From IMG/VR virus record IMGVR_UViG_2606217106_000016: a stretch of 13,511 bases of DNA. One strand, given 5' to 3'. A model generated the notes under the pieces. That model was not told the DNA's origin. It searched no databases and saw nothing but the letters and a program-made list of their open reading frames with translations. Position 1 is the stretch's first letter, and each line of letters opens with the position of its first letter. This document shows positions 7,451-10,589 of the stretch, piece by piece. Source of the DNA: a virus (Duplodnaviria > Heunggongvirae > Uroviricota > Caudoviricetes). The position numbers and the translations under genes were made by a program.

Positions 7451-7531
7451 ATGAACCATGAAGAAATGAATCAGCGCTTCAGTCGTCTGGAAAATGAAAT
7501 TGCTGAACTGAATAAAAACTGTCGGCGCTGA
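7451..7531 (+). CDS. Tiny ORF (26 aa, MNHEEMNQRFSRLENEIAELNKNCRR), translationally coupled to the next ORF (ATGA overlap)
   Basis: GGGGAGAG 7437-7444 about 7 nt upstream of ATG 7451; the stop TGA 7529-7531 overlaps ATG 7531. Below the ORF-track length cut-off; found by manual translation. Confidence 0.25.
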   Translation: MNHEEMNQRFSRLENEIAELNKNCRR

Positions 7532-8007
7532 TGCCTTCTGAAGATGAAAAAAAACGCCGCGATGAGCAGTTTGCTGCGTTTGACGATTATTGTCGGAAAG
7601 TGATGAGCAGAAATCTCGCAGAGTGTTTCAGTATTCATAATGATAATTTCAGTGAGCTGGAATGGGAGTGTAACCGGCCATCCTTTGTTGTATCCGGTGA
7701 TGCTGGGAAAATAACCATCTCAGAAAATGGGAAAGTAACACCTCCATCGCACCAGCACAGTGAGGAGCTCATTGAATTTGCCATTGATTACCTGAAGAAC
7801 AATAAAAAGCAGGGGCTGATGAAGCGCGTTGGCCGTTGCATGGGATATCTTCAGGTAGCCGCTGAGATTGAAGCGCTGGCCAGTGGTGCTGATAAGGATG
7901 CAATTGTGCGGGAGGCTCTTCTTCGTGATTTTAATACTCCACCCTTTAAAAAAGTGCCGGCTTACTGGCTTCATCCGGGGCTGACTTATCTTAAAGTGCG
8001 TATTTAG
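7531..8007 (+). CDS. Hypothetical cytoplasmic protein (158 aa) inserted between holin and endolysin; function unknown
   Basis: Track ORF 7531..8007; no TM segment, charged N-terminus (MPSEDEKKRRDEQ); visibly more AT-rich than flanking lysis genes; no family recognised. Confidence 0.6.
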   Translation: MPSEDEKKRRDEQFAAFDDYCRKVMSRNLAECFSIHNDNFSELEWECNRPSFVVSGDAGKITISENGKVTPPSHQHSEELIEFAIDYLKNNKKQGLMKRVGRCMGYLQVAAEIEALASGADKDAIVREALLRDFNTPPFKKVPAYWLHPGLTYLKVRI

Positions 8008-8043
8008 TGGGCCAGGGACAGCGGCTGAATATTTAATATATCC

Positions 8044-8577
8044 ATGAACACCAAAATCAAATACGGCCTGTCGGCTGCCGTTCTGGCGCTGATTGCCGCT
8101 GGTGCGCCTGCGCCTGACATTCTCGACCAGTTTCTGGATGAAAAGGAAGGTAACCACACCACGGCATACCGTGATGGCGCGGGTATCTGGACCATCTGTC
8201 GCGGTGCCATTCTGGTGGATGGTAAACCTGTCGTCCCGGGCATGAAGTTGTCGAAGGAGAAATGCGACCAGGTTAACGCCATCGAACGTGATAAGGCGCT
8301 GGCATGGGTGGAGAAAAACATCAAAGTGCCATTGACCGAACCCCAGAAAGCGGGGATCGCGTCATTCTGTCCGTACAACATTGGTCCCGGTAAGTGTTTC
8401 CCGTCGACGTTTTACAGACGAATTAATGCTGGTGATCGCAGGGGAGCATGTGAGGCGATTCGCTGGTGGATTAAGGACGGTGGCAGAGACTGCCGTATTC
8501 GTTCAAACAACTGCTACGGTCAGGTATCCCGTCGTGACCAGGAGAGCGCGCTGGCGTGCTGGGGTATCGACAGATAA
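8044..8577 (+). CDS. R: SAR endolysin R (T4-lysozyme-like muramidase with N-terminal signal-anchor-release domain), 177 aa
   Basis: N-terminal Gly/Ala-rich weakly hydrophobic segment GLSAAVLALIAAGAPAP followed by the catalytic E-x8-D-x5-T motif in EKEGNHTTAYRDGAGIWTICRG; typical partner of a pinholin. Confidence 0.85.
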   Translation: MNTKIKYGLSAAVLALIAAGAPAPDILDQFLDEKEGNHTTAYRDGAGIWTICRGAILVDGKPVVPGMKLSKEKCDQVNAIERDKALAWVEKNIKVPLTEPQKAGIASFCPYNIGPGKCFPSTFYRRINAGDRRGACEAIRWWIKDGGRDCRIRSNNCYGQVSRRDQESALACWGIDR

Positions 8578-8671
8578 GCAGAATATTTTGCTGAAAAATA
8601 AGGCATGGCCACGCGGGCGGATAACATGAAATCCTGCGAACTGGCGAAACGTAAGTGAATAAAAGTAAAAA

Positions 8672-8706
8672 CCCCGTTTGTTGGCAGCAAGCGGGGTTTT
8701 GTTTTT
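8672..8706 (+). terminator. Rho-independent terminator (9-bp stem CCCCGTTTG/CAAGCGGGG with one G-U pair, 7-nt loop, T-rich tail)
   Basis: ccccgtttg-ttggcag-caagcgggg-ttttgttttt, about 95 bp after the endolysin stop; A-rich 5' flank. Confidence 0.6.
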
Positions 8707-9131: not shown

Positions 9132-9218
9132 ATGAGTGCTGAACTTATTCGGGCAATGGCATTTGCCATTCGTATTGTGGCCATTGCTGTTCTGGTCTGG
9201 GCAATCCGTTGGTGGTGA
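9132..9218 (+). CDS. Small hydrophobic peptide ORF (28 aa)
   Basis: [28 protein letters not shown]; shares the RA(L/M)AFAI(K/R)xVA(V/I) motif with the preceding ORF; stop TGA 9216-9218 lies 1 nt before the Rz ATG 9220. Confidence 0.3.
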
Positions 9219-9219
9219 T

Positions 9220-9687
9220 ATGAACCGTGTTCTGTGTGTGGTGATTATTGTCCTGCTGGTAGCCTGTGGTGTGCTTAGTCTGGGGCTGAATCATTACCGC
9301 GATAACGCCATCACCTACAAAGCGCAGCGCGATAAAAAAGTCAGTGAGCTGAAACTGGCGAATGCCACTATTACTGATATGCAGCAGCGCCAGCGCGATG
9401 TTGCTGCGCTCGATGCAAAATACTCGAGGGAATTAGCCGATGCGAGAGCTGAAAATGAAACTCTGCGTGCTGATGTTGCCGCTGGTCGTAAGCGCCTGCG
9501 GGTCAACGCCACCTGCCCCGGTACCGTGCGTGAAGCCACCGGCACCTCCAGCGTGGATAATGCAACCGGCCCCCGACTGGCAGACACCGCTGAACGGGAT
9601 TATTTCATCCTCAGAGAACGGTTGATGACAATGCAGAAGCAGCTGGAAGGGGCGCAGGAATATATCCGCACTCAGTGCCTGAAATAA
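9220..9687 (+). CDS. Rz: Rz i-spanin (inner-membrane spanin subunit), 155 aa
   Basis: ATG 9220 after GGTGGTG; N-terminal TM ([20 protein letters not shown]), coiled-coil periplasmic domain, C-terminus ...[10 protein letters not shown]; lambda Rz-like. The track start at 9136 belongs to the upstream small ORF frame run-on. Confidence 0.8.
9440..9625 (+). CDS. Rz1: Rz1 o-spanin lipoprotein, embedded in Rz in the +1 frame (61 aa)
   Basis: [61 protein letters not shown]: lipobox LVVSAC, proline-rich; near-identical in pattern to lambda Rz1. Confidence 0.8.

Positions 9688-9729: not shown

Positions 9730-10589
<860 letters not shown>

Follow-up and report, generated by a model that had tools for sequence, protein, structure and literature searches.

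A catalogued accessory gene between the holin and endolysin genes of a decaying Escherichia coli prophage is very likely split by a one-base frameshift

The holin-endolysin gap and its prophage setting

We analyzed a 13,511-nt stretch of viral DNA (IMG/VR record IMGVR_UViG_2606217106_000016), referred to below as the window, in which the genes run in the order DUF968 gene, RusA, antiterminator Q (2433-3044), three tRNA genes (3811-4060), NanS-p-type esterase gene (4438-6516), DUF826 gene, holin gene S, the accessory gene studied here, endolysin gene R and Rz (9136-9687). Past Rz, similarity to phages ends at ~9780, and from there on the window holds a fragment of a collagen-like tail fibre, a DUF4376 ORF and, on the opposite strand, an integrase. 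No stx, terminase, head or tail genes were found in the window, with no terminase, head or tail genes following Rz. The window is a decaying Stx-phage-type prophage that lacks stx and that has lost its packaging, head and tail genes, and the terminase-to-tail block appears to have been deleted at ~9780. The features of the S-R region that are used in the analysis are as follows.

7232-7447, + strand: holin S, phage-21-type class II, 71 aa, with dual starts at Met1 and Met4 (PF04971, E=9e-33; phrog_20/9876)
7437-7444, + strand: Shine-Dalgarno-like GGGGAGAG, read from the sequence, within the 3' end of S
7445-7447, + strand: S stop codon TAG (ORF list)
7451-8007, + strand: accessory gene, read as a frameshifted 185-aa phrog_1085 allele (profile match, alignment, restored ORF)
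7451-7531, + strand: 5' remnant ORF of 26 codons (ORF list; phrog_15975, phrog_36381, phrog_1085 positions 117-139)
7514-7518, + strand: A5 homopolymer, site of the 1-nt deletion (DNA alignment; A6 in relatives)
7531-8007, + strand: 3' ORF of 158 codons, coding for ancestral residues 28-185 (exact protein WP_001423428.1)
7678-8004, + strand: conserved C-terminal domain, residues 50-158 of the 158-aa ORF (AlphaFold2, invariant columns, dN/dS)
8044-8577, + strand: endolysin R, SAR-type, 177 aa (PF00959, E=1.4e-24; phrog_7)

A sequence-only reading of this DNA had placed two ORFs in the gap, of 26 aa and 158 aa, and the ORF list bears this out with ORFs at 7451-7531 and 7531-8007, the first of them reaching 27 codons if counted from a GTG at 7448. 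The same reading put ~600 bp between a holin stop at 7447 and an endolysin start at 8044, a separation that is 596 bp, and correctly described the gap as lower in GC (45.5%) than either S (54.6%) or R (54.9%). The accessory start codon (7451) is located 3 nt past the S stop codon on the same late-operon strand, and R, which codes for a lysozyme-family protein with an N-terminal hydrophobic SAR-like stretch, starts 36 nt past the accessory-gene stop codon. The GGAG core of GGGGAGAG is positioned 8 nt 5' of the ATG at 7451, and this motif probably functions as a ribosome binding site from which the accessory gene would be translated closely after S. Consensus scans, which are insensitive for such elements, revealed no sigma-70-like promoter site on the + strand from 7200 to 8044 and gave as the sole terminator-like match between S and R a weak one at 7966-7983 with a tail that is not T-rich. 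The S-R transcript appears to include the accessory gene. Further downstream, between R and Rz, there is a strong intrinsic-terminator-like hairpin (8668-8700) in which a 15-bp stem precedes a T run; the R-Rz stretch of other lambdoid phages holds ant or other inserts.

Several additional features of the window were observed outside of the lysis genes. The tRNA cluster at 3811-4060 codes for Met(CAT), Arg(TCG) and Arg(TCT) and is located downstream of Q as in Stx phages. Only ~380 nt (4060-4438) separate this cluster from the NanS-p esterase gene, which indicates that the position occupied by stx in relatives such as ST866 (stx1c) is empty here. Past Rz, ORF 9838-10533 contains a 45-nt tandem repeat at 9963-10318 (7.9 copies, 90% matches) with collagen-like Gly-X-Y triplets, and this ORF looks like a side-tail-fibre fragment.

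In phage genomes with this S and R, the length of the S..R match varies with what the slot between the two genes holds, as listed here.

S..R match of ~808 nt: S and R adjacent, slot empty; 933W and most Stx2a phages
S..R match of ~1,165-1,203 nt: ydfR alone in the slot; for example BP-4795
S..R match of 1,635-2,072 nt: longer variants

The expectation that the insert would prove sporadic was upheld, S and R being adjacent in most Stx phages, and the C-terminal domain of the accessory protein was found in only 5 of 50,697 phage records. The S-R slot is a recombination hot-spot in Stx-type prophages. In Salmonella prophages a homologue is present between Q and the holin gene, with neighbors that include HicAB, ParE and an ArtA-like toxin gene, and one of these cassettes has a lambda-S-type holin. 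This placement indicates that the constant feature is the late operon near the lysis genes and not the S-R gap, and a specific link of the gene to pinholin/SAR-endolysin cassettes, which we had considered, was dropped for the same reason.

A single reading frame interrupted at an A run

The 158-aa product had been described from the sequence as a protein with no recognizable family. This is correct with respect to Pfam, where it has no match, but not with respect to the PHROG profiles. Specifically, phrog_1085 is matched at positions 141-296 by the 158-aa ORF (E=9.8e-104) and, directly ahead of these, at positions 117-139 by the 26-aa ORF (E=0.0018). An intact relative, P0001, covers positions 117-296 as one protein (E=2.6e-112), and phrog_36381 also covers both window ORFs in order. 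The family is therefore a catalogued one, which carries the PHROG function label "function unknown", and WP_001423428.1 is named 'hypothetical protein' by NCBI.

At the same place, a single ORF beginning MNHEEMNQRFSRLENEIAELNKKLSALMPSED... is found in related Stx prophages and in related E. coli genomes. Examples of these relatives are given here.

Stx2_12E129: single ORF of 213 aa
Stx2_499: single ORF of 161 aa
E. coli ST866: single ORF of 185 aa (WP_062891728.1)

The P0001 protein is 97% identical to the 185-aa ORF of ST866. When the DNA is aligned, the relatives have GAATAAAAAACTG where the window has GAATAAAAACTG, and the one missing A is the sole cause of the split. Addition of one A to the run gives an uninterrupted ORF of 185 codons with no other defect, and both the length and the N-terminus of this restored ORF match those of intact relatives such as ST866. 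Over the codons of the C-terminal domain, the window and the intact ST866 copy differ by one non-synonymous and no synonymous changes.

The composition of the two ORFs follows from this alignment. The 26-aa ORF had been interpreted as a charged helical peptide, and its residues 1-22 are indeed those of the ancestral leucine-zipper helix. It is, however, a gene remnant in which these residues are followed by four out-of-frame residues, NCRR, that are without counterpart in relatives, and by a TGA stop at 7529-7531. The 158-aa ORF starts at the ancestral internal Met28, the ATG of which (7531-7533) overlaps the new stop by one nucleotide. The junction is thus TGATG and not the ATGA overlap that had been reported, and the pair looks translationally coupled because the new TGA by chance overlaps the Met28 ATG. 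No Shine-Dalgarno sequence was read upstream of 7531.

From these results we consider it very likely that 7451-8007 is one frameshifted accessory gene, not a two-gene module, and that it reflects ordinary decay in a decaying E. coli prophage. Loss of one A from an A6 run would cause translation from 7451 to end after 26 codons and would leave a 158-codon ORF open from Met28 to the end of the gene. Ribosomes that finish the 26-codon remnant could reinitiate at UGAUG, which would give some zipper-less 158-aa protein. At best the window would code for this zipper-less 158-aa fragment, and the gene is most probably becoming a pseudogene. An open ORF of 158 codons is expected after a recent frameshift and would not in itself indicate that the truncated product is made or functional.

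Distribution of the A5 allele and alternative readings

We next searched 5,426 complete E. coli genomes with an 81-nt query centered on the A run. The stretch is carried by 231 of these genomes, in 227 cases at 98.8% identity, and none of the 231 has the A5 run or a 100% match to the query. Among the matches listed, the span in the record is 82 nt, which indicates that these genomes have A6. Exact matching in IMG/VR identified A6 in 26 contigs and A5 in 4. The carriers of A5 are as follows.

E. coli DEC6E (AIFZ01000018)
GCA_907175995.1
Three contigs of one IMG genome
One contig of another IMG genome

Two further contigs for which a 158-aa product had been called are in fact A6 and are simply cut within the gene. 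From S to R the A5 copies all match the window at 99.9-100% identity and differ from each other by 0-1 nt, and this near-identity suggests that they arose by one recent mutation. The loci with A5 are of at least two structural types, one with and one without window segment 8185-10599. Since two structural variants share A5, the change must have been inherited and is not a read error. As judged from these comparisons, A5 is a real, inherited and recent mutation of one haplotype and not a conserved arrangement. Additional analysis of the 26 A6 contigs in IMG/VR revealed that 14 have an intact 185-aa ORF, nine have other intact ORFs (161, 213, 217 or 222 aa), two carry other lesions that truncate the ORF and one is cut at the contig end, a spectrum that is as expected of a real but dispensable gene. 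The sequence-only reading had suggested that conservation of the reading frames be examined in related prophages; it is the intact single ORF that is found there, and the two-frame arrangement is not conserved.

Two side observations on the A5 carriers can be added. In IMG/VR UViG 2609460344 three contigs (L020, L021 and L022) each have an identical A5 S-gap-R block (99.9-100%) with flanks that are only 84-98% identical, which suggests that recombination or gene conversion copied the lysis block from one co-resident prophage to another. Window segment 8185-10599, which covers most of R, Rz and the collagen-like fragment, is missing from DEC6E and from one IMG/VR contig (L006 and L023), where ~355 nt of other sequence are present instead; the same prophage remnant exists here in a second version that is more degraded.

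The alternative that a homopolymer sequencing or assembly error is responsible, with the true genome being A6 and coding for an intact 185-aa protein, draws on the absence of A5 from any complete RefSeq E. coli genome, and single-base homopolymer indels are the commonest kind of sequencing error. A five-base run is, however, short for systematic homopolymer error, and the same A5 run occurs in at least four or five separate assemblies that include two structural variants, so that we regard such an error as very unlikely.

It is highly improbable that the locus is instead a genuine two-gene module in which a small helical peptide is coupled to a 158-aa protein, be it of the toxin-antitoxin, regulator-effector or leader-peptide type. 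Both ORFs are open, their TGATG overlap is the classic geometry of translational coupling, and the A5 arrangement is present in seven contigs. These contigs nevertheless hold only copies of one near-identical haplotype, whereas every other relative has a single ORF, and no diverged lineage with two ORFs was found. The NCRR tail argues in the same direction, as these residues are out of frame and unmatched in relatives. The translationally coupled module put forward in the sequence-only reading is therefore not sustained, nor is its suggestion of a toxin-antitoxin-like pair, for which PADLOC, Pfam and NCBIfam gave no significant matches. Finally, programmed -1 frameshifting or phase variation at the A run, with short and full-length products both intended, is scarcely credible even though a -1 shift in AAT-AAA-AAC restores exactly the ancestral ...ELNKKLSALMPS, given that T_AAA_AAC is not a canonical X_XXY_YYZ slippery heptamer and has broken P-site pairing, that efficient transcriptional slippage calls for longer runs than 5-6 A, that only two states exist with A5 being monophyletic so that the change is not recurrent, and that the two-frame layout is limited to one haplotype. 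The reading of 7451-8007 as a single gene interrupted by one lost A is the one we retain, and in an element that is decaying in this manner it is no surprise that a dispensable gene has recently been frameshifted.

The phrog_1085 family and the role proposed for the intact protein

Homologues of the accessory protein number ~165 by single-sequence search and ~280 by profile search, and all named ones are from E. coli or Salmonella enterica. The architectures observed in the family and its relatives are as follows.

Long forms, 259-333 aa: DUF1327/YdfR domain, linker, zipper and ~110-aa C-terminal domain
185-aa form: no DUF1327 head; zipper helix of 27 residues, second helix, flexible linker and globular ~110-aa C-terminal domain
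161-aa form: zipper kept, unrelated C-terminus
K-12 YdfR: head alone, between essQ and rrrQ (Qin prophage)

The family is a modular one of lambdoid prophages and occupies the same late-operon place next to the lysis genes as does the window gene, and relative to the phrog_1085 profile the window copy lacks the N-terminal third (the DUF1327-like head) in addition to being frameshifted. The ydfR gene of the K-12 Qin prophage is located in the same holin-endolysin slot (essQ-rrrQ). In long relatives of the window gene (287-329 aa), named 'YdfR family' by NCBI, DUF1327 is fused upstream of the same zipper and C-terminal domain, whereas K-12 YdfR lacks the C-terminal domain and the window ORFs lack DUF1327. 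Specifically, Pfam searches found no DUF1327 (PF07041) in either window ORF, while the long relatives and K-12 YdfR match it at E=1e-41 to 1e-53.

The zipper has heptad d positions M6, L13, L20 and L27 and a positions F10, I17 and L24, of which the 26-aa remnant retains M6, L13 and L20 at d and F10 and I17 at a. The 161-aa variant of the slot gene (L004 1752-2237, and also L026, L039 and L043) has the same zipper and second helix followed by an unrelated C-terminal module, ...TKIGPFFLKVER, that has no Pfam match. The zipper region seems to be a junction for module shuffling.

The C-terminal domain has two conserved motifs, GRCMGYLQVAAEIEA and DFxxPPFKxxPxxWxxPGxxYLKxR. The domain is recognizable in Salmonella at 28-44% identity, its motifs being GRCMG(Y/L)LQVAAEIEA and DF(D/N)xPPFKxxPxxWxxPGxxYLKxR. 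A catalytic Cys-His pair was considered and then dropped, as several homologues have Ser or Ala in place of the GRCMG Cys. Among E. coli variants the dN/dS of the domain is 0.17-0.40, and these ratios indicate that the domain is under purifying selection and that the family is a real selected protein. The earlier description of the gap as real coding sequence of uncharacterized function that is embedded in a late operon thus stands. AlphaFold2 with a 67-sequence alignment gave a model with a pLDDT of 78.5 and a pTM of 0.66, in which most of the C-terminal domain has a pLDDT of 85-96 and is predicted to fold as a three-strand beta meander followed by four helices; an earlier model from 36 E. 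coli sequences had a pLDDT of 54 and was set aside. A Foldseek search of the 67-sequence model against PDB and BFVD gave no match at E<=0.001, and PDB sequence searches with two profiles remained at chance level (best E=0.057). Pfam, NCBIfam and PADLOC searches with the 158-aa, 185-aa and longer forms gave nothing significant except for DUF1327 in the long forms. Neither a transmembrane segment nor a signal peptide was detected (maximum 19-residue Kyte-Doolittle value of 0.75, GRAVY of -0.61), and a role as holin, antiholin or membrane-bound lysis regulator, which calls for at least one transmembrane segment, is not supported.

Many relatives, among them the most distant two that were found, have a convergent ORF of ~105 aa tail-to-tail 3' of the gene coding for the C-terminal domain. 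Its positions in five loci are given here.

L003: 2569-2883, - strand
L002: 2405-2719, - strand
L013: 4807-5124, - strand
L054: 585-902, - strand
L055: 436-759, - strand

The two genes are either 5-10 nt apart or overlap by 18-33 nt. The convergent ORF belongs to phrog_1853, a group of 41 proteins from E. coli and Salmonella with no Pfam match, and together with the C-terminal domain gene it looks like a conserved convergent pair. The window is without a phrog_1853 partner, which has been lost by its 185-aa form.

In regards to function, the intact protein would be soluble, non-enzymatic and cytoplasmic, and would be made from the late transcript together with the holin and endolysin. It probably oligomerizes through its zipper and engages a partner through its C-terminal domain. 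We tentatively take the intact gene to be dispensable for lysis and non-essential. Accessory lysis regulators with genes within or beside lysis cassettes, such as P1 LydB, P2 LysA/LysB, T4 RI/RIII and Mu gp25, are likewise non-essential, are expressed along with holin and endolysin, and occur in a subset of phages. The window protein differs from these regulators in that it has no transmembrane segment, which several of them have, in that it has no sequence or fold match in PDB or BFVD, and in that the Salmonella gene is upstream of the holin. From its context, it is possible, as a tentative prediction, that the intact protein modulates a late process such as lysis timing. Any functional reading of the C-terminal domain is an argument from context alone and is held with low confidence.

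It is also conceivable, though rather unlikely, that the intact gene is not a late-process modulator and is instead a moron that benefits the lysogen, or an anti-defense or exclusion gene. The low GC content that had led the sequence-only reading to propose a moron is confirmed, as is a sporadic distribution, and in these features, as well as in its late-region position, the gene resembles morons of lambdoid phages such as lambda bor and lom and the stx and nanS-p genes of Stx phages. Also in keeping with such a role are the company of the Salmonella copy, which has HicAB, ParE and an ArtA-like toxin beside it between Q and the holin, and the pairing of ancestral forms with a small convergent ORF. 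A moron in the strict sense is nonetheless doubtful, given that the consensus scan, insensitive as it is, revealed no promoter-like site in the gap and, as its one terminator-like match, the weak one without a T-rich tail. Furthermore, a gene that is on the late-operon strand and that starts 3 nt after the S stop should be silent in a lysogen, and PADLOC gave no match.

Literature searches on ydfR/DUF1327 and on Stx lysis cassettes revealed nothing on the accessory gene itself, and only one paper on YdfR and RNase E was relevant. [quoted passage not shown] By analogy the DUF1327 head of the long forms might tether the protein to host RNase E, which we consider doubtful, and this link cannot be transferred to the window copy as the latter lacks the DUF1327 head. 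A broader proposal, which we regard as quite unlikely, is that the C-terminal domain is a structurally unprecedented effector of enterobacterial lambdoid phages that, in its ancestral form and together with an RNase E-binding DUF1327 head and the phrog_1853 partner, would constitute a late-operon system tuning lysis timing or host RNA decay, with the window copy being a stripped-down and recently inactivated version.

The main consequence of this analysis is a correction. What had been read as a coupled peptide and protein pair in a lysis cassette is very likely a one-base frameshift in a single catalogued gene, and there is no case for pursuing the pair as a new two-gene module. The family to which this gene belongs is selected, module-shuffling and late-expressed, and it has a C-terminal domain without a recognizable fold relative. 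Coupled with the reported binding of the YdfR head to RNase E, this makes the family a reasonable, if modest, choice for experiments in an intact phage, a purpose for which the window copy is unsuitable.
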